From: Escherichia phage HK6
Reading direction: 5' to 3' (one strand)
Sequence record: PP724615.1
Length of the DNA stretch: 64,000 bases
Part shown: piece after piece, positions 1,204-47,388 of the stretch
Layout: each line of letters opens with the position of its first letter
How positions within the stretch are numbered: position 1 is the first letter of the stretch
Notes under the pieces: model-generated
Database searches by the model: none
Seen by the model: the letters and a program-made list of their open reading frames with translations, nothing else
What the model was told of the DNA's origin: nothing
Made by a program: the position numbers and the translations under genes

Positions 1204-1905
1204 TCAAATTTTCATTTTTTCGATCATAGCTGCAACACAATAGCTCTCAACTAAGGCATCGAATGCTGGATCATGTTTAACCGGATAGATCCCATAACGA
1301 ATAGTGTCCATTTTCTCCATTTTAGCGGTTGCCCAGCTAATACCTTCAGCCTCTAGCTCTTTGTAACTATATCCAGCTTGCATCCAGAGATTACGAAGAG
1401 ATCGAACATTGCCCAAATTCCAGAATTTCCACGGAACTACCTCTTCATTGGTTCCAGCATGGAAAGTGTTTGCAGAGTAGATAGTCATATCAAACTCTGG
1501 GCCATTGCCATAATACAAAGCATTATCGCCTAGAGCCAACTCCATAATATTTTGAGCCATAGAGTAGGCAGCATAGTTAGAGCCGAGTTTATTAGTACAA
1601 TGATGTTTACCGTTTTGGAATGCAATCAGCTTTGGATTACGCTCGTTCATAGCTTGCATAATGTGGATAGCAGACGGACTGTCTTTAGCTTGATCCATCC
1701 AGAATGCTAGAGTAGATGCTGTAACTTTGGCACCAGAATTAAGCTGATCCTGCACATCCAAAGTAACAAATACTAGATCAGGGTCTTTATCAATTCCATG
1801 CATAGCCACAAAAGCGAATGAAGGCATTGCGATATGAGTAGTACCACAATCTCCCGGAGTTCCCAGAGATTCAATATCTAGCATACCAAATGGTTTTACT
1901 TTCAT
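1204..1905 (-). CDS. DEDDh-type 3'-5' exonuclease (DexA-like)
   Basis: Exo I-like motif LDIESLG near N-terminus, PWKFWN segment and C-terminal H-x-A-x-D motif (KHDPAFDALVESY) as in DnaQ/T4 DexA-type exonucleases. Confidence 0.6.
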   Translation of the reverse strand: MKVKPFGMLDIESLGTPGDCGTTHIAMPSFAFVAMHGIDKDPDLVFVTLDVQDQLNSGAKVTASTLAFWMDQAKDSPSAIHIMQAMNERNPKLIAFQNGKHHCTNKLGSNYAAYSMAQNIMELALGDNALYYGNGPEFDMTIYSANTFHAGTNEEVVPWKFWNLGNVRSLRNLWMQAGYSYKELEAEGISWATAKMEKMDTIRYGIYPVKHDPAFDALVESYCVAAMIEKMKI

Positions 1906-2491: not shown

Positions 2492-3007
2492 TTACTTCGC
2501 TTTACGCTTGCGAGCTGGTTTAGCAGATTTACGGGCAGAATCACCCGTGAACTTAATGCCTACACCGTAACACAGAGCGCGAACGTTATCTTTACTATAC
2601 TCTACGCCAAAGATATTTGGCTTAACAGAACCAAACTGTCCACGAGCATCACGTAGTACGTCTGCCGTTGGTTTACGCTTCTGGTTAACTGCTTTCTCAT
2701 AGTCTTTCATAGCCATGCCATTACGAGAGAACAATTCAGCCCCAGCGTTGAAGCTCAGGGAAACTGGGACAGATTTGTGGCCGTAATTTTCTACATACAT
2801 AACCATTTTGTAGGATTTACGGGTGGCATTTTTAGCTTTAGGCTTCTGACGAATCGGAGCCGGATTATTCAGTGCTTGTGCAGCCTGAGCATCGGTAGGA
2901 TGCTTACGCAGGTGGCGTTCCAGACGAGCTTTGCGATTAGCCTCGGTCTGCGGGAAAGTTTTAACTGCCGGAGCTGCTTGAGTTTTTGCGTTTTTCTGCT
3001 TAGCCAT
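2492..3007 (-). CDS. basic Lys/Arg-rich protein, possible abundant nucleic-acid-binding protein
   Basis: 171 aa, strongly basic N- and C-termini; host-optimal codons (CGT, CTG, GGT, AAA); consensus promoter 3046-3074 just upstream on minus strand. Confidence 0.5.
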   Translation of the reverse strand: MAKQKNAKTQAAPAVKTFPQTEANRKARLERHLRKHPTDAQAAQALNNPAPIRQKPKAKNATRKSYKMVMYVENYGHKSVPVSLSFNAGAELFSRNGMAMKDYEKAVNQKRKPTADVLRDARGQFGSVKPNIFGVEYSKDNVRALCYGVGIKFTGDSARKSAKPARKRKAK

Positions 3008-3045: not shown

Positions 3046-3074
3046 ATTATACGAGAATTTGAAGCGTTTAGCAA
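3046..3074 (-). promoter_or_regulatory. sigma70-type promoter (minus strand)
   Basis: Reverse complement reads TTGCTA, 17 bp, TATAAT then ATACTTCATAAATTGATAAAC. Confidence 0.55.
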
Positions 3075-3082
3075 ATGAATTT

Positions 3083-3532
3083 TTAATTTATTAACTGTAA
3101 GCTTCTTTTAATTTCAGACCTTACCTGCATCAAAAGAACTCCTAAAGTATTATCCCCGATGCCTCGGCAAACACCCCAATATGTATCTCCCCAGGTATTT
3201 CCTTCGATCAAAGTTGCATTTTTTGTTGCTAACAGTTTGTCCCTCAAATCAGGGATTGCAAACTTTAACCGTAAAAGCTCTAGCATTACATCATCTTTTA
3301 CCTTATCCCAGTCAGAGCGCAGAGTTAATTTACGTCCTCTACGTTTGGCAACACCTGCATTTAGGGAGCGCAGTACATGAGCTACATCATCTTTTTGGTC
3401 GGATTTCATAGCCTGAAAAGCATGTTCTACAGTATCAGCATGCCATATTTCATTCAGATATTCAAAAGTAATTGGTGATAAATAAAAGTTTGATAAGAAA
3501 CTATAAGCACCTTTAAATTCAGTAATCTTCAT
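3083..3532 (-). CDS. NADAR / YbiA (DUF1768) family protein
   Basis: Recognisable alignment to E. coli YbiA from memory: FLSNF...EHAFQAMK, SDWDKVKDDVMLELLRLKF, EGNTWGDTYWG, GDNTLGVLLMQVR. Confidence 0.75.
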   Translation of the reverse strand: MKITEFKGAYSFLSNFYLSPITFEYLNEIWHADTVEHAFQAMKSDQKDDVAHVLRSLNAGVAKRRGRKLTLRSDWDKVKDDVMLELLRLKFAIPDLRDKLLATKNATLIEGNTWGDTYWGVCRGIGDNTLGVLLMQVRSEIKRSLQLIN

Positions 3533-3813
3533 TTTTTACGCCCCGCATCTTTAGCCTCTTCGGCTGTATAGATATACTGATAAGCCCCTTTGGAGTATGC
3601 TGGAGCAGTACACATTTTCTTACGCTCAATCTCTTCTTGAGCTTTTCTTTCGCGTTCAGCTAATTCTTCGTCCAGATAAACTAAACGTTGTTCTGGAGGG
3701 GGTGGAAGACGTGTTTCTGGCTCACCAATATTAGCCTTTCTTATTTGACGAGGTGATTGTGCGCGTTTTCTCAATGGTTTAAATCCTAATGAATTTGAGT
3801 TATAAATCCGCAT
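3529..3813 (-). CDS. hypothetical protein
   Basis: 94-aa ORF, stop/start overlap with flanking genes. Confidence 0.35.
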   Translation of the reverse strand: MRIYNSNSLGFKPLRKRAQSPRQIRKANIGEPETRLPPPPEQRLVYLDEELAERERKAQEEIERKKMCTAPAYSKGAYQYIYTAEEAKDAGRKK

Positions 3814-3890: not shown

Positions 3891-4379
3891 TCACATCTCA
3901 GCCATTTCAGCTTCAGTAATAACTGTATTACATAAGGCATCTACAGCTTCATTACCACTAATACCAGAATGTCCTTTAACCTTAATAAAGGTAGGGTTAG
4001 TATTATGAAAGTTGATATACTGCTGTGTTAATTTAAATGCTTCCTGCCAAAGTTCTAGATTAAGAGGAACTTCACCATCTGCTTTCTTCCAGCCTTTCCT
4101 TTGCCAAGAAAACATCCAACTTTCCATGCCATTTTTGCAATAAGCAGAGTCAGTATAGATAGCAATTGGTCTATTATCTTTTTTAACAGACCAACGTAGA
4201 GCTTCTACGATAGCTGTGAGTTCCATCTCATTATTTGTAGTTTTAGGATTATAACCAGATTTAGAACCTAAACGATCGTAGTTATCATCATAGACAATAA
4301 AACCCCAAGCACCTGGACCTGGGTTAGACTTACAAGCACCATCTGTGTAAATGTGGAAAACCGACATTATACCTCCCAA
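3891..4379 (-). CDS. rnh: ribonuclease H (RNase HI family)
   Basis: YTDGAC..NPGPGAWG, EMELTA, YTDSAY, KGHSG..NEAVDAL motifs. Track start is a TTG; more likely start is ATG at 4367 preceded by GGAGG and overlapping the upstream stop by 1 nt. Confidence 0.8.
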   Translation of the reverse strand: MGGIMSVFHIYTDGACKSNPGPGAWGFIVYDDNYDRLGSKSGYNPKTTNNEMELTAIVEALRWSVKKDNRPIAIYTDSAYCKNGMESWMFSWQRKGWKKADGEVPLNLELWQEAFKLTQQYINFHNTNPTFIKVKGHSGISGNEAVDALCNTVITEAEMAEM

Positions 4380-13717: not shown

Positions 13718-13907
13718 GGGTTTAAACGCCGCTTTGGAAAACGCATTAATGCAGCACTGGGAAACTGGCTATAAGGATGGTGTTGAATCCTGCGCTACTA
13801 TGCTAGAAGTTATTGCTAATACCTTAATGGAGAAAGGCAATAAAGAATTAGCTGAGCTATTAGATAGTATTGGGCAAAACTTCAGAGAACAGGTGAAAAA
13901 TGCGTAG
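13686..13907 (+). CDS. hypothetical protein
   Basis: 73-aa ORF; stop overlaps the Sir2-like start. Confidence 0.35.
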   Translation: MAFSKPMLPDKGLNAALENALMQHWETGYKDGVESCATMLEVIANTLMEKGNKELAELLDSIGQNFREQVKNA

Positions 13908-14736
13908 ATTAATTATTATTAGTGGTGCAGGTTTGAGTGTTGAAAGTGGTGTACGAGCTTTTCGTACTAATACTGCTAGCGGTAAAGCATTGTGGGATGA
14001 TTATGATCTAGAAGAAGTATGTAATATTCATGCCTTTCGTGGTAATTTTTATCATAAAACCCATATGTTTTACAACAAGCGTCGTGAAGAGCTAAAAACT
14101 GTTGAACCCAATCTTGCGCATTTGCGTATTGGTGAATGGTATAAACAATATCCAGGTCAAGTAGTAAACTTGACTACCAACGTTGATGACCTTATTGAGC
14201 GTGCTGGCGTTTCACATAGTGACATTCTGCACATTCACGGATATTTAAAAGAGGTTGTTGTAGCTGATAGCTACAATAGTAGCAATAAACGGATTATTGA
14301 TGTAGGATACAGTTCTATCGATCCGGATGATTATAAATGGGTTAAACCTAATGTAATCTTCTTTGGAGAGCATGCTCCAGCATATGCAGAAATGTACAAT
14401 GTTTTTGATGGTATTACCAGTCAAGATATGATTGTTGTGGTTGGTTGTTCTAACCAAGTAATTAACTTCTACTGGGAATTATTTCCTGTTCTTAATTTGA
14501 CTGCTGCGAAACTTATGGTTGTTAACTACCATGATAGTGCCCTCGCAGCGGAACCGGGCTATCAAGGTATGACTCGTAGTGAGATGTACCAGCTGGAGGA
14601 ACGCGGTATCCCTTACTGGAGTAAAGGTGCGGTAGATGCTTTCAGTGACCCTGATTTTATTGCTCGTGTAGAAGCTCATTTAGAGGGTAGACCTTATGTG
14701 TTGAGAAGCAAGGGAAACAGATATGTCCATAGTTAA
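13900..14736 (+). CDS. Sir2 (sirtuin) family NAD-dependent protein lacking the zinc ribbon
   Basis: GAGLSVESGVRAFR (cf. GAGISxESGIPxFR), TTNVDDLIERAG (cf. TQNIDxLH..AG), HIHG catalytic His, VIFFGE, VVVGCS, VVN; no Cys pairs between HG and FGE. Confidence 0.7.
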   Translation: MRRLIIISGAGLSVESGVRAFRTNTASGKALWDDYDLEEVCNIHAFRGNFYHKTHMFYNKRREELKTVEPNLAHLRIGEWYKQYPGQVVNLTTNVDDLIERAGVSHSDILHIHGYLKEVVVADSYNSSNKRIIDVGYSSIDPDDYKWVKPNVIFFGEHAPAYAEMYNVFDGITSQDMIVVVGCSNQVINFYWELFPVLNLTAAKLMVVNYHDSALAAEPGYQGMTRSEMYQLEERGIPYWSKGAVDAFSDPDFIARVEAHLEGRPYVLRSKGNRYVHS

Positions 14737-42435: not shown

Positions 42436-44538
42436 TTACCTTATATGGATATACCCGTTTTGCAGGTCTATCTTCATTTTGTAAGATCCCTCTGGATTAG
42501 AGGATAGTGCTGCTGCACGATCATATATAATATTTACACCAATTTGTGATAAGAAAGCGTTATTAGCAACAATTTTACTAGCAGTTACTGTACCATTAAC
42601 TATCATATCACCATGTAAAACCATTGCAGGGCTAGCCCATGCTGAACCATTCCACTGCCTAGTAAACGCTGTTCCTGGTGCTCCGCTCTTATACTCTGTT
42701 AGTACATCATATTTAACAGGACCAGTACCAAAGTTAGATGTAAAAAACGAATTAGCTTGAGAATCATTCCATGCTGTTAAATTCGCAATAGCAAGAGAAT
42801 ACATTCCAGGACCACGTTGTCCATTATTACCTGGTCGTCCATCAGCTCCTGGTTTACCATCTGCTCCTGGTCTACCATCAACACCTTCAGTACCACTCCA
42901 TTGAACTACATCTGACCAACTGGTTCCGGATACTAACTGATTAGTAACAGGGTCTAGAGTACCAGTAGAGCAGTAAATATTTTGAGTATTAGATGTTCTA
43001 TTTGGTGGGGTTTTAGACCAACCAGAAGGTGGGTATGCAGGGCTTGTTGGTTTAGCAGGTAATGAAGTACCTAGAATATAAATAAATACTGTTTGTTTAC
43101 CCTGTATACCCGTCGCTATATCAATGTCGCCATTAGGTGTACCGATCACAACTCCACTAGAAATTCTTAAGGTATCACCATCATAACGAATATATTGTGT
43201 AGCATTACCGATATCTAGTTTTGGCTTCGCAGTAGCATTATCCATACCCATCCAAATACCAGATTTTGTATCCCCCCAAGTTTTACCTTGAGTATAGATT
43301 GCAGGGTTGTCTTGACCAGTCAAATTAGTCATGACAAAGTTCGCAGCATTAATGGTTTTGGTTATTACACTTCCATCAACGTTAACTATCTTTTTAATAG
43401 GGTCAAAAGATATTGGTGCTTTTCCTTCGGCATCTAGAAGTCCAATGTTAATTGCACCGGTGGCAGCGTCTATTAGAAAGGTTTGTTTCCAGGTAGATCC
43501 ATCTTTAATCTTACCCTTGATGTATGCATAGTTTACTTCGATACCGGTCTCATTAACAAAACTATTATCTAACGGTGTACTCTCATTTAGTATAAATGTC
43601 TGTACTGCGGAATCAGTAACATCTTGAGCATCTGGTCCCCAGGCAATAGATGACACTTTAAATTTATGCTCTACTTTCCATGGGAATGATATAATTGTTG
43701 CCGACTGAGCAGCCCCCACGTTGATTTTTTGTGCTTTAGTCCATCCAGTTCTTGCAAATTCTGCTGAATCTATATAAGAGACAACGAATTCACGAACGTT
43801 GGCACCTGCACCCCTATTCCAATCCCATTGCACACGTAAATCATAGCGTTCTTTACCGTCTGCTATACGCGCAGCTTTAAACGCAATATTAACAGGAGCT
43901 GTAGGGGGTACAAAGTTATATCTAACTTCAAAGACAGTAGGATACTCATAGTATCCAGATGAATCAATAGTTACTCCATCTGGTAGGGATATTTGTCCAG
44001 AAATTCTTACCTTATAGAACCCTATTGGCACACCACCAAACATAATAGTTGGCATCAACGCACCAACATAATATTTAACCCACGGATTATTAGCATTAGA
44101 ATTGTTTTTTAATTCTATAGTACAATAATCAGCTTCTCCTGTAGTATCTATATAAACTATTGGCGCTCCAACACCTACGTCTACAGGCTCTGATTCACAT
44201 CTAGTACCTGTAATTCTAGGTGCCGACTTCATTTTAAAAGTTTGTTTGTCAGATAGATTAATACCTATCTGAGCATTAAGTAGTTCAGAGTCTATTATAG
44301 AATCATAAAATGCACCCTGAACTTCATAAGTTGTTGTAGGTTTTAGGTTATTAATAGTTACAGAGAAGGTATCAACTCCAGTAAAATCTCTACGAGTAAC
44401 ATTGCTACCTTCTTTAAGCCAAAAAGATCTGCCTATAACGTCGTAATCAGAGTAGATAGAATGCTGGATATACGCCAACGTATATCCAGTTAAGACGCTA
44501 TTTAGGACCATTTTAGCTGGTGCATTATTTGAAATCAT
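42436..44538 (-). CDS. baseplate/tail-tip protein (pb4-like) with collagen-like segment
   Basis: 700 aa; nine Gly-X-Y triplets [27 protein letters not shown]; position after baseplate hub gene. Confidence 0.5.
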
Positions 44539-47388
44539 TTAAATAGTAGCCCAACTAACAGATTGCTCACCATTTTCCCCTTCTGCTCTAATCCTAAATC
44601 GTAGTTTACGATTAATTCCTAAAGCACCAGAGTTTAATAGTGCAAAATCCGCCTTATTATATGTTAATAGATAGTCATAAGTATAGGCATCCTCTATCCT
44701 AATACTACGAAGCATTCTATCCTGAGAATCATGTATTTCTAGAGTATAATAAATTTCTGGAATTATTTCTTCCTCAGGTATCTTATCCCAAGCAAGCTTC
44801 ACGTCTGGCCCAACAAATTCAGTTACATCTCCAGAAGCTGTATTAGTTACTCTGAAGTTACTAACTACACTCAAGTTTCTAGCAGAGTTAAGATCCACGG
44901 AAAGAGTAACAGGAGAACTACGTCTACCGTTAATATCAACAGCACGTAATTCAAAAATAGCTAAACCAGCAGGCTCACCTATAATCTCCTGAATCATCCT
45001 TTCATTAGGATTATTCTCTAATTGCTGAATTATGTAAGGATCTACATGACCTGAATGAGCTATAGAATAATATACTACGTTATTAGTAAGACTAGGTAGC
45101 CAAGATAGTTCCCCATTTTTACCTATAGCACCTATCATGCCACCAGGAGTTGGGGTATATTTAAAGTCTCTAGGAGGAAGAACATTATTACTAATATCTG
45201 GAATATCATTGCCGCTATTATCCACTTGATCAGAATTGATGAATACATCTTCACCATACTCTTGTAGTGTTAAATTAATCTTACCATCACGAGTATTTTC
45301 TACTTCATCTACTAAGAAGAACTTGTCTTTCCACCCATAACGCTCGTAAGTAAAAGCAATCGGGTCATTTGGCTCTATACCAATAAACTTATATGGTACT
45401 GAGAAGCTAAGTGTACGTGAGTACCTGGACTTTTTAAGCTCTCTATCAGCGTAACTACGAGCGGTGTAGTAGTTAGTAATATTTGCAAAAGATAGCTGAA
45501 GTTTTTTATCCAAACCCTTATCTTGTTCTTTAAACTTAGAGTTATAGAATGTAATAGAGTTTGTTTTCCAGCTTAGTGCAGGATCTACTAAAGATGCTTG
45601 TACTGAGTTAAACTTATTCCTACCAGTAGTATCAGATAAGTCTAAGTCCCCATAAGTATCTAGAAAACCTATTTTCAAAGGAGTTGTAGAGTGCTTCTCT
45701 ACAGTTATTCTATACTCACCAGATAAGTTATTTATAGCACCACCAAAAGAGTCTAGTACTCCCTGAACGTTTTTAAATACTGATTCGGAGGTGTCTAATA
45801 TAGTGTTTAACTGGACTACTTGGCGGTGTTCAGAAATAGAATCACTCCAACCAATATATCTCCAATAGGGTTGCCAACTAATCTGATAAGACTCATCGAT
45901 TATATCCAGAATTTTTGCTTCTGATATAATTTTTTGTAGTGGAAACTGATCTAGAGTTATATTAGCTCCATAACGTTCAGAGGTTAGATAGTCCATGAGC
46001 TGCCAGATACCGTTAAGGCTAGTTTTATCAGCTTTAACAGACCCATCAGAGCTATATACTTTAACTTTCTTACCTTGTACTTCGGCACTAATTTCTGGAA
46101 TTTCAGTTCTATTCTCGTTAATAGTAAATCTAACTACAGCATAGGCTGTATCTAAGAGCTTATAACGAGAATCCCAGTACTCTGGACCATTGCCATTTTG
46201 ATTCTGTAAATAGAAACCTCTTCTTTTAGCAATATCTACTAGTACTTGAGCTGCTGTCTGGTCGGGTTTGCCATGAAAAGTCCATATTCTTATATCGCCA
46301 TTACCATCATTATACTTGTACTCCTGGCCATGTACAGAGGGTTGAGAAGTACTTGTACCCGCAGCCAATCTATGCATTGTATCGCCCACTAGTTTCTTAC
46401 GACCAAAGCAGGTTCTAGCACTGGAATCCGTTTCATCAAAACAGATCATTGGGCTGTCACCAATATAGAAATCTAGAAATCCGTCAATTTCTCCTTCCGA
46501 AAACGCATAGACTACATACACTATATTAGGGTTATTTAGCTCAGTATCTGCAAAAATAGGGATACCAGGAATTTTCTGAACCCCATATACAACAGGTATG
46601 AATTTAGCAGCTAAGTTAAAGTCTAAATCAACTTCTTTAGTTACAGTCTCATAATACTTTTTAAGACTGTAACTTCTTGATAGCCCAAAAAGTTTCTTCT
46701 TGGACTGAAGTTTATAGCGTTCTTCTTTTACCTGATATTTAGCTAATATAGTGGTACTTTTATTAGAGTGGAAGAATCCATAGTCTTCTTGGTACTCAGG
46801 GCGTTTAGCACCATTTGATGGCTGAAGAGTCCCATTAACAACTTCAAGACCTCGGTGAGAAGCATCATCAGTATAACGACCATTCACTCTATCAAAGTCG
46901 TAGAACTGGTTGGAACAGTTCCACGTTATAACAGAAGTTCCTATACCAGAAGTGTTAACATTATCCTTTATTCCTCCGCCAGTAATTTTACCCCGAAAGA
47001 ATAGTAAAGGTCCATTAGTATCAGGATCCACAGGAAGAATATTACCTTCTTCATCAATTATAGCTTGATGTATAGTGATAGTTCTATCTAAGAAAGATAC
47101 TCCATTTTGAACTAGTTTTAATACTTCATCTTCTGCTGTACCAGTTATGGTAAAAGATAGGCTCCCAATAGATAGTTCACGGTTTTGTTTATGGGAGCCG
47201 ATACTTTTTACTTTACCAGATCTATATAAGATTCCGTTATAAGTAACATCTCTAAAGTAGTCAGTTAAATAAATATAAGTAGCAGCAGAGCCTGATGAAC
47301 TAGGAAGCTCTAAAGCTATAAGACAAGCTGTTTTTAGCTTGTCATGAGTATTAAGATATGTTTTAGCACTATCGAGTATCTGCTTCAT
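44539..47388 (-). CDS. baseplate hub protein (pb3-like)
   Basis: 949 aa, same length as T5 pb3 from memory; immediately after Dit-like gene. Confidence 0.55.
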   Translation of the reverse strand: MKQILDSAKTYLNTHDKLKTACLIALELPSSSGSAATYIYLTDYFRDVTYNGILYRSGKVKSIGSHKQNRELSIGSLSFTITGTAEDEVLKLVQNGVSFLDRTITIHQAIIDEEGNILPVDPDTNGPLLFFRGKITGGGIKDNVNTSGIGTSVITWNCSNQFYDFDRVNGRYTDDASHRGLEVVNGTLQPSNGAKRPEYQEDYGFFHSNKSTTILAKYQVKEERYKLQSKKKLFGLSRSYSLKKYYETVTKEVDLDFNLAAKFIPVVYGVQKIPGIPIFADTELNNPNIVYVVYAFSEGEIDGFLDFYIGDSPMICFDETDSSARTCFGRKKLVGDTMHRLAAGTSTSQPSVHGQEYKYNDGNGDIRIWTFHGKPDQTAAQVLVDIAKRRGFYLQNQNGNGPEYWDSRYKLLDTAYAVVRFTINENRTEIPEISAEVQGKKVKVYSSDGSVKADKTSLNGIWQLMDYLTSERYGANITLDQFPLQKIISEAKILDIIDESYQISWQPYWRYIGWSDSISEHRQVVQLNTILDTSESVFKNVQGVLDSFGGAINNLSGEYRITVEKHSTTPLKIGFLDTYGDLDLSDTTGRNKFNSVQASLVDPALSWKTNSITFYNSKFKEQDKGLDKKLQLSFANITNYYTARSYADRELKKSRYSRTLSFSVPYKFIGIEPNDPIAFTYERYGWKDKFFLVDEVENTRDGKINLTLQEYGEDVFINSDQVDNSGNDIPDISNNVLPPRDFKYTPTPGGMIGAIGKNGELSWLPSLTNNVVYYSIAHSGHVDPYIIQQLENNPNERMIQEIIGEPAGLAIFELRAVDINGRRSSPVTLSVDLNSARNLSVVSNFRVTNTASGDVTEFVGPDVKLAWDKIPEEEIIPEIYYTLEIHDSQDRMLRSIRIEDAYTYDYLLTYNKADFALLNSGALGINRKLRFRIRAEGENGEQSVSWATI

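Follow-up and report, generated by a model that had tools for sequence, protein, structure and literature searches.

The gene at 3083..3532 on the minus strand of Escherichia phage HK6 (PP724615.1; the window below means the whole stretch of 64,000 nucleotides that was analysed) encodes a NADAR protein that is the orthologue of AdfN(Bas32), and in this respect the finding is already known (Johannesman, Awasthi, Carlson, LeRoux, Nat Commun 2025, PMC11825919). Very probably the gene product is an early-expressed, stand-alone NADAR ADP-ribosylglycohydrolase, the AdfN of T5-like phages, which frees phage DNA of the guanine ADP-ribosylation caused by DarT1. Beyond the work of Johannesman et al. (2025), only the boundaries of the accessory cassette that carries the gene, its distribution and a testable idea on residue K63 are new here.

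Orthology to AdfN(Bas32) and its demonstrated function

The window protein is identical at 148 of 149 positions (99.3%, full length) to the NADAR protein of Escherichia phage HildyBeyeler (MZ501074.1; bas33_0070, QXV80081.1), which is the BASEL phage Bas33. The NADARs of Bas32 and Bas33 are identical and have been given the name AdfN(Bas32) (PMC11825919). The only change, A9 in the window and T9 in Bas33, falls in a non-catalytic column that is variable across the 46 members of the family. Moreover, the locus is syntenic: the phages belong to the same genus, the order rnhA, T5p088 homologue, NADAR gene, DUF7022 gene is shared, the ATGA overlap in front of the NADAR gene is the same, and the flanking DNA is ~95% identical. 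Identity over the full length together with this syntenic locus identifies the window gene as an orthologue of AdfN(Bas32).

Ectopic expression of AdfN(Bas32) has been reported to neutralise DarT1 toxicity in uninfected E. coli and to bring the plaquing of RB69, T5 and Bas25 back to full titre on a DarTG1 host; T5 was not helped on a DarTG2 host (PMC11825919). Since the window protein differs from AdfN(Bas32) by one non-catalytic residue, the role proposed in the first-pass annotation, an anti-defence factor reversing the guanine ADP-ribosylation by DarT-type toxins, is supported and had already been demonstrated for this orthologue. The published tests establish sufficiency by ectopic expression, and they were made on the orthologue rather than on the window allele or the window phage. 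In those parts of the Johannesman 2025 text that were available to us, we found no deletion in a T5-like phage, no plaquing of Bas32 or Bas33 on DarTG1 and no in-vitro assay of this clade, and a search for native-phage deletion or for Bas32/Bas33 plaquing on DarTG1 found no second paper naming both DarTG1 and Bas32. On a DarTG1 host, the phage that encodes AdfN would be expected to depend on it. T5 is DarTG1-sensitive (PMC11825919), and the lack of a NADAR gene in T5 agrees with this reported sensitivity.

NADAR family membership, fold and active site

The Pfam NADAR profile PF08719 (DUF1768), whose gathering cutoff is 35.1 bits, was matched with 78.9 bits (E=6.9e-22); the match spans residues 9-142, corresponding to profile positions 9-163 of 163 and thus to nearly the whole profile. 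The protein also matched PHROG 1017 (E=8e-45) and, among solved structures searched by sequence, E. coli YbiA (2b3w, E=3.5e-15) and the NADAR protein of Phytophthora nicotianae (PnNADAR; 8bau, E=6.7e-7). These matches are far beyond chance and confirm that the open reading frame encodes a real NADAR protein.

An AlphaFold2 model, built from 46 homologous sequences that are 50-60% identical and come mostly from phage-sized metagenomic contigs, reached a mean pLDDT of 97.9. It contains strands at residues 21-25 and 28-32 and helices at 35-41, 47-54, 59-66, 75-90, 94-101 and 129-148. In a Foldseek comparison with the PDB, the model was found to be similar to YbiA (2b3w; TM 0.82, 37% identity) and to ADPr-bound PnNADAR (8bau; TM 0.78), and weakly to the DarG1 NADAR of Geobacter lovleyi (8bat; TM 0.52, 19% identity), with no significant PDB match besides these three. 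The model and the Foldseek matches agree on a YbiA-like alpha-helical core with two small beta-sheets.

Catalytic and ADPr-binding residues were mapped on multiple sequence alignments (MSAs) that included 8bau (residues 22-142), E. coli K-12 YbiA, T4 gp30.3 and Bas60 bas60_0111. The SEQRES numbering of 8bau equals the published numbering +2, an offset that was checked on ten residues. Near E36, a pairwise HMMER alignment to 8bau runs 3 residues out of register and misplaces the catalytic Glu, so the assignment was based on the MSAs and on the E-x6-K spacing. On this basis E36 corresponds to PnNADAR E43 and T4 AdfN E36, K43 to PnNADAR K50 and T4 AdfN K43, and E110, at the third catalytic position, to PnNADAR E125, so that the catalytic Glu and Lys and the acidic or His residue typical of the third position are all in place. 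Further equivalent pairs are D116 and PnNADAR D130, W119 and W133, K63 and K75, R67 and R79, and W75 and W89. E36, K43 and D116 are invariant in the MSAs. E110 and W119 show no variation among the 46 sequences of the phage clade, and at least 90% of the sequences in the wider alignment have them. The catalytic Glu and Lys of E. coli C7 DarG1 are E88 and K95. The roles of the NADAR active-site residues were defined by Schuller et al. (2023; PMC11543638), and the residues equivalent to E36 and K43 were mutated in T4 AdfN by Johannesman et al. (2025; PMC11825919).

The first-pass annotation had read the sequence as a YbiA-like member of the NADAR family and had named a DUF1768 profile search as the way to check it. 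This assignment is borne out by the profile match over the whole domain, the AlphaFold2 model, the Foldseek matches and the catalytic residues; E36, K43, E110, D116 and W119, whose loss would have spoken against a NADAR protein, are all present.

An orphan gene in the early region of a T5-like phage

The window belongs to a Tequintavirus (T5-like; Demerecviridae/Markadamsvirinae), and the 2.3 kb around the gene are 99.0% identical to Escherichia phage slur09. The NADAR open reading frame covers exactly 3083..3532, starts with ATG, encodes 149 aa and includes the stop codon. Its ATG overlaps the stop codon of an upstream open reading frame of 94 aa (3529..3813, minus strand), a T5p088 homologue of PHROG 4593 with no assigned function, in an ATGA arrangement. 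This overlap suggests co-transcription and translational coupling, and the NADAR gene is probably transcribed together with the upstream open reading frame. Beyond the T5p088-like gene lies the RNase H gene rnhA (3891..4379); downstream of NADAR, the DUF7022 gene (2492..3007) comes next, and an exonuclease-like gene is located at 1204..1905. The wider surroundings are made up of T5 early-region genes, namely rnhA, thyA (thymidylate synthase), frd (DHFR) and nrdAB (NrdB/NrdA).

Directly 3' of the NADAR stop codon, a promoter scan found a sigma-70-like promoter, TTGCTA-17-TATAAT (3046..3074, minus strand), in a region conserved with T5, where the T5 record annotates promoter P-H 207. This promoter, which drives the DUF7022 gene, lies at the left boundary of the cassette and has no part in NADAR function.

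Neither the list of open reading frames nor Pfam nor PHROG revealed an ADP-ribosyltransferase (ART), DarT or toxin gene among the neighbours, and the NADAR gene is classed as an orphan because of this. This is also the context expected of an AdfN, as the flanking RNase H, T5p088-like, DUF7022 and exonuclease proteins carry no ART domain. With a GC content of 0.369 and a GC3 of 0.287, the gene lies within the range of its neighbours, and the base composition gives no sign of a recent foreign origin.

The first-pass annotation had furthermore linked the NADAR gene to a Sir2-like gene as joint NAD/ADP-ribose functions in host interaction. The window does contain a Sir2-family gene on its plus strand, at 13900..14736 (Pfam SIR2, E=9e-25), and in slur09 this gene is annotated as cobB / NAD-dependent deacylase. 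The proposed link found no support: the Sir2 gene is 10 kb away, on the opposite strand, and its spread is independent of NADAR, with homologues in ~1000 phage records (T5-likes, rV5-like and other large phages) that include T5-likes lacking NADAR. A functional NADAR-Sir2 pair is thus not supported, given that Sir2 is widespread in T5-likes regardless of NADAR.

Downstream of Sir2, the window segment 14892..16231 (plus strand) encodes a protein with HAD_SAK_2 (E=7e-20), the HAD domain known from 'Swiss Army Knife' RNA-repair proteins, and a tandem pair of DUF7415 paralogues. Among the BASEL phages, an active AdfN is also encoded by Bas60 (PaulScherrer). This phage carries a macrodomain protein, a sirtuin, a PRPP synthetase and a nicotinamide phosphoribosyltransferase (L010 9888..11454; L011 7000..7812 and 43141..45839), a NAD/ADP-ribose toolkit much richer than that of the T5-like window.

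An accessory cassette of T5-like phages

The NADAR gene is lacking in T5 (AY692264) and in NBEco002. In T5, the order is T5p088, then an intergenic region with promoter P-H 207, then T5p087, and ~40 bp stand in place of the ~490 bp found in the window. On the left side, an alignment showed that the DNA of the window, T5, NBEco002 and Bas33 is identical up to the base adjoining the NADAR stop codon. On the right side, the similarity of the NADAR-less phages resumes ~42-43 nt into the upstream open reading frame (megablast, query 3533-3813), and their matches to the 2.3-kb locus fall into two pieces that together span 79-80% of it. The C-terminal tail of the upstream protein reads '...SKGAYQYIYTAEEAKDAGRKK' in NADAR-positive phages (window, Bas33) and '...NKGAYQYVSDEEQAKMVGR' in the NADAR-less T5 and NBEco002 as well as in the Salmonella phage UTK0009; the distinct tail was also recorded as '...IYTAEEAKDAGRKK' in NADAR-positive and '...VSDEEQAKMVGR' in NADAR-less phages. 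The last ~14 codons of the upstream open reading frame therefore travel with NADAR, and two alternative tails co-vary with the presence or absence of a NADAR gene downstream. Because of this co-variation, we define the accessory unit relative to T5 and NBEco002 as a cassette of ~490 bp (3083 to ~3574) that consists of the NADAR gene and the 3' end of the upstream open reading frame, with its boundary inside the latter.

The 2.3-kb locus has matches in 441 T5-like phage records in total. A tblastn search of phage genomes found the NADAR protein at 95-100% identity in 95 records, which corresponds to ~95 of ~441 T5-like records or ~21%, duplicates included. UTK0009 (Epseptimavirus) encodes a 60%-identical NADAR (L003 2489..2938) between rnhA and the T5p088 homologue, whereas the NADAR gene of the window follows the T5p088 homologue on its other flank. 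The different position suggests a second independent insertion into the same hot spot of a few hundred bp in the early region of T5-like phages.

Several records are short or oddly labelled. OR848833.1, OR847649.1 and OR848287.1 ('Listeria phage LM 4-14-1 / 4-11-1') and MG065692.1 ('Campylobacter phage C13') are T5-like at 89-100% identity to the window and probably represent contamination or mislabelled hosts. The annotation of the orthologues varies between 'swarming motility protein YbiA', 'GTP cyclohydrolase II', 'DUF1768', 'NADAR family protein' and 'hypothetical', and small neighbouring open reading frames have been given names that are hardly credible, for instance 'tail length tape-measure protein' or 'baseplate wedge subunit'. 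We regard this as annotation noise that deserves to be corrected.

Proposed mode of action

According to the proposed mechanism, the DarT1 toxin of a host DarTG1 system would transfer ADP-ribose from NAD+ to the guanine N2 amino group of phage DNA, and this modification would block replication. AdfN would cut the N-glycosidic bond between ribose and guanine, releasing ADP-ribose and restoring the DNA template, and with the restored template the phage could escape abortive infection. As it would act on the modified DNA and would not bind the toxin, AdfN can be described as a putative orphan antitoxin of type IV. The guanine-ADP-ribose glycohydrolase activity predicted for the window NADAR follows from the in-vivo neutralisation of DarT1 by the 148/149-identical AdfN(Bas32); by analogy, the hydrolysis of G-ADPr would depend on E36, K43 and E110 in the same way as in PnNADAR, DarG1 and T4 AdfN.

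Two observations stand against this explanation. Among the NADAR branches, that of YbiA is the nearest to the protein (40% identity), and E. coli YbiA itself serves a housekeeping function in riboflavin metabolism and does not rescue from DarT1 in vivo. Moreover, it lacks the N-terminal extension that has been proposed to bind ssDNA in DarG1.

Position among the NADAR proteins

Comparison with the characterised NADARs places the window protein near YbiA, with which it shares 40% identity (E=5e-21). The third catalytic position is Glu in the window NADAR, Asp in DarG1/BC4488 and His in T4-like phage NADARs; de Souza and Aravind, as cited by Schuller (PMC11543638), use Glu to distinguish the 'YbiA family' in their classification. 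By identity and by its Glu-type third residue the window NADAR thus appears YbiA-like, whereas the published tree places AdfN(Bas32) elsewhere, in a group with two archaeal NADARs and outside the YbiA group (PMC11825919). Like the window NADAR, E. coli K-12 YbiA (2B3W) consists of a minimal core without N-terminal extension, superimposes with the TM of 0.82 given above and has Glu as the third residue. In contrast, YbiA has Ala where the window protein has K63, is encoded in a LexA-controlled host operon beside dinG and, unlike AdfN(Bas32), does not rescue cells from DarT1 toxicity.

The DarG1 NADARs (E. coli C7; Geobacter/Trichlorobacter lovleyi, 8BAT; BC4488 subfamily) perform the job proposed for the window protein, the removal of ADP-ribose from guanine N2, and share with it the catalytic Glu and Lys as well as the Lys equivalent to C7 K115. 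Membership in the DarG1-type antitoxins is, however, ruled out. The window NADAR has no DarT1 neighbour, its 149 aa start at the core and lack the beta1-beta2-alpha1 N-terminal extension, which is the proposed ssDNA-binding surface of DarG1 (Schuller et al., 2023; PMC11543638), its third residue is Glu and not Asp, and the TM to 8bat is only 0.52.

T4 AdfN (gp30.3) resembles AdfN(Bas32) in being a phage-encoded orphan antitoxin against DarTG1, with E36 and K43 at identical MSA positions. Where the window NADAR has E110 and K63, T4 AdfN has His and Gln, respectively, and unlike AdfN(Bas32) it fails to neutralise DarT1 in uninfected cells. Assignment to the T4-type AdfN (gp30.3 clade) was rejected on the basis of a BLASTP E value of 1.1 and of Glu instead of His. 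T4 AdfN and the T5-like AdfN were acquired independently; the absence of BLASTP similarity fits the published picture of repeated NADAR co-option by phages (PMC11825919). The DS-32 'NADAR family anti-phage protein' (NF053876) was likewise rejected (44.9 bits against a cutoff of 240), and a match to PADLOC PDC-M42C (27.7 bits) reflects generic NADAR similarity.

A possible role of K63 in antitoxin competence

K63 of the window protein corresponds to PnNADAR K75 and to K115 in the DarG1 of E. coli C7. In C7 DarG1, K115 is not needed for catalysis, yet rescue from DarT1 in cells depends on it (Schuller, PMC11543638). In our alignments, Lys occupies this position in C7 DarG1, which rescues from DarT1 without phage (PMC11543638), in the window protein and AdfN(Bas32) (VAKRRGR), the latter of which rescues as well, and in AdfN(Bas60) (YYKRLGR), which also rescues (PMC11825919). 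YbiA (Ala, VAARMGR) and T4 AdfN (Gln) do not rescue without phage, though both are active in vitro. When these alignments are set beside the published phenotypes, Lys at the K115 position and DarT1 rescue without phage correlate in five out of five cases, and K63 is nearly invariant in the phage clade. The failure of T4 AdfN has also been ascribed to a need for phage factors or modified DNA (PMC11825919). Net charge and pI do not discriminate between YbiA, which fails, and AdfN(Bas32), which works (pI 9.0 vs 9.4, charge +2.8 vs +5.0).

It is conceivable, although on balance doubtful, that the T5-like AdfN represents a minimal YbiA-derived NADAR whose competence as a stand-alone antitoxin hinges on the surface residue K63 (DarG1 K115) and which, owing to its YbiA-type Glu, might remove cytidine-ADPr and RNA-ADPr as well, thereby guarding T5-like phages against ART defences beyond DarTG1. 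This proposal is drawn from residue comparisons.

Alternative roles

The main natural targets of the protein might be other ADP-ribosylations of nucleic acids, such as cytidine-ADPr or RNA guanosine-ADPr produced by pierisin/ScARP-like, YarT-like or other ART defence toxins, with the anti-DarTG1 activity being one facet of a broader eraser. We regard this as plausible, though less likely than not, and it is compatible with the explanation that we prefer. The YbiA-type Glu at position 110 and the 40% identity to YbiA point in this direction, as YbiA-type and generic NADARs strip C-ADPr from DNA and RNA, which DarG1s and the T4 NADAR do not (PMC12945103). Moreover, RNA G-ADPr is removed by all NADAR families tested (PMC11833690), and a YbiA-subfamily antitoxin exists for YarT, a toxin unrelated to DarT. 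However, no such toxin is known in the defence of E. coli or Salmonella against T5-like phages, and the DarT1 phenotype is the only one that has been demonstrated for AdfN(Bas32) (PMC11825919).

A housekeeping-type YbiA N-glycosidase that destroys reactive intermediates of the riboflavin pathway during infection (damage control or nucleotide salvage) is very improbable. The best characterised sequence relative, E. coli YbiA, is annotated as such an N-glycosidase, and the equivalog model for riboflavin-intermediate N-glycosidases, TIGR02464, was matched with E=3.2e-18, but its 66.5 bits stay below the curated cutoff of 73.7. In addition, there are no riboflavin genes among the annotated neighbours, the gene is dispensable in ~80% of T5-likes, and the anti-DarT1 phenotype of the orthologue AdfN(Bas32) is absent from E. 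coli YbiA. The nucleotide salvage that the first-pass annotation had offered as an alternative thus gains no support; the sub-cutoff TIGR02464 score, the accessory distribution and the phenotype of the orthologue count against it.

Iyer et al. (2022; PMC9503650) proposed from genomic context that phage NADAR and Macro domains chiefly degrade soluble ADP-ribose-derived immune signals or by-products instead of acting on macromolecular adducts. For the window NADAR this role is equally hard to credit, since that prediction predates the biochemical work, the tested phenotype is the reversal of a DNA-modifying toxin (PMC11825919) and nothing in the NADAR locus ties it to signal-based systems.

Significance for T5-like phages

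With removal of DarT1-dependent guanine ADP-ribosylation as by far the most probable function, a usually mislabelled accessory gene that is common among T5-like coliphages and Salmonella phages can be recognised as an anti-DarTG1 counter-defence gene. This knowledge is of use in annotating these phages, and also when the host range of T5-like phages intended for therapy has to be predicted on strains that carry DarTG1.
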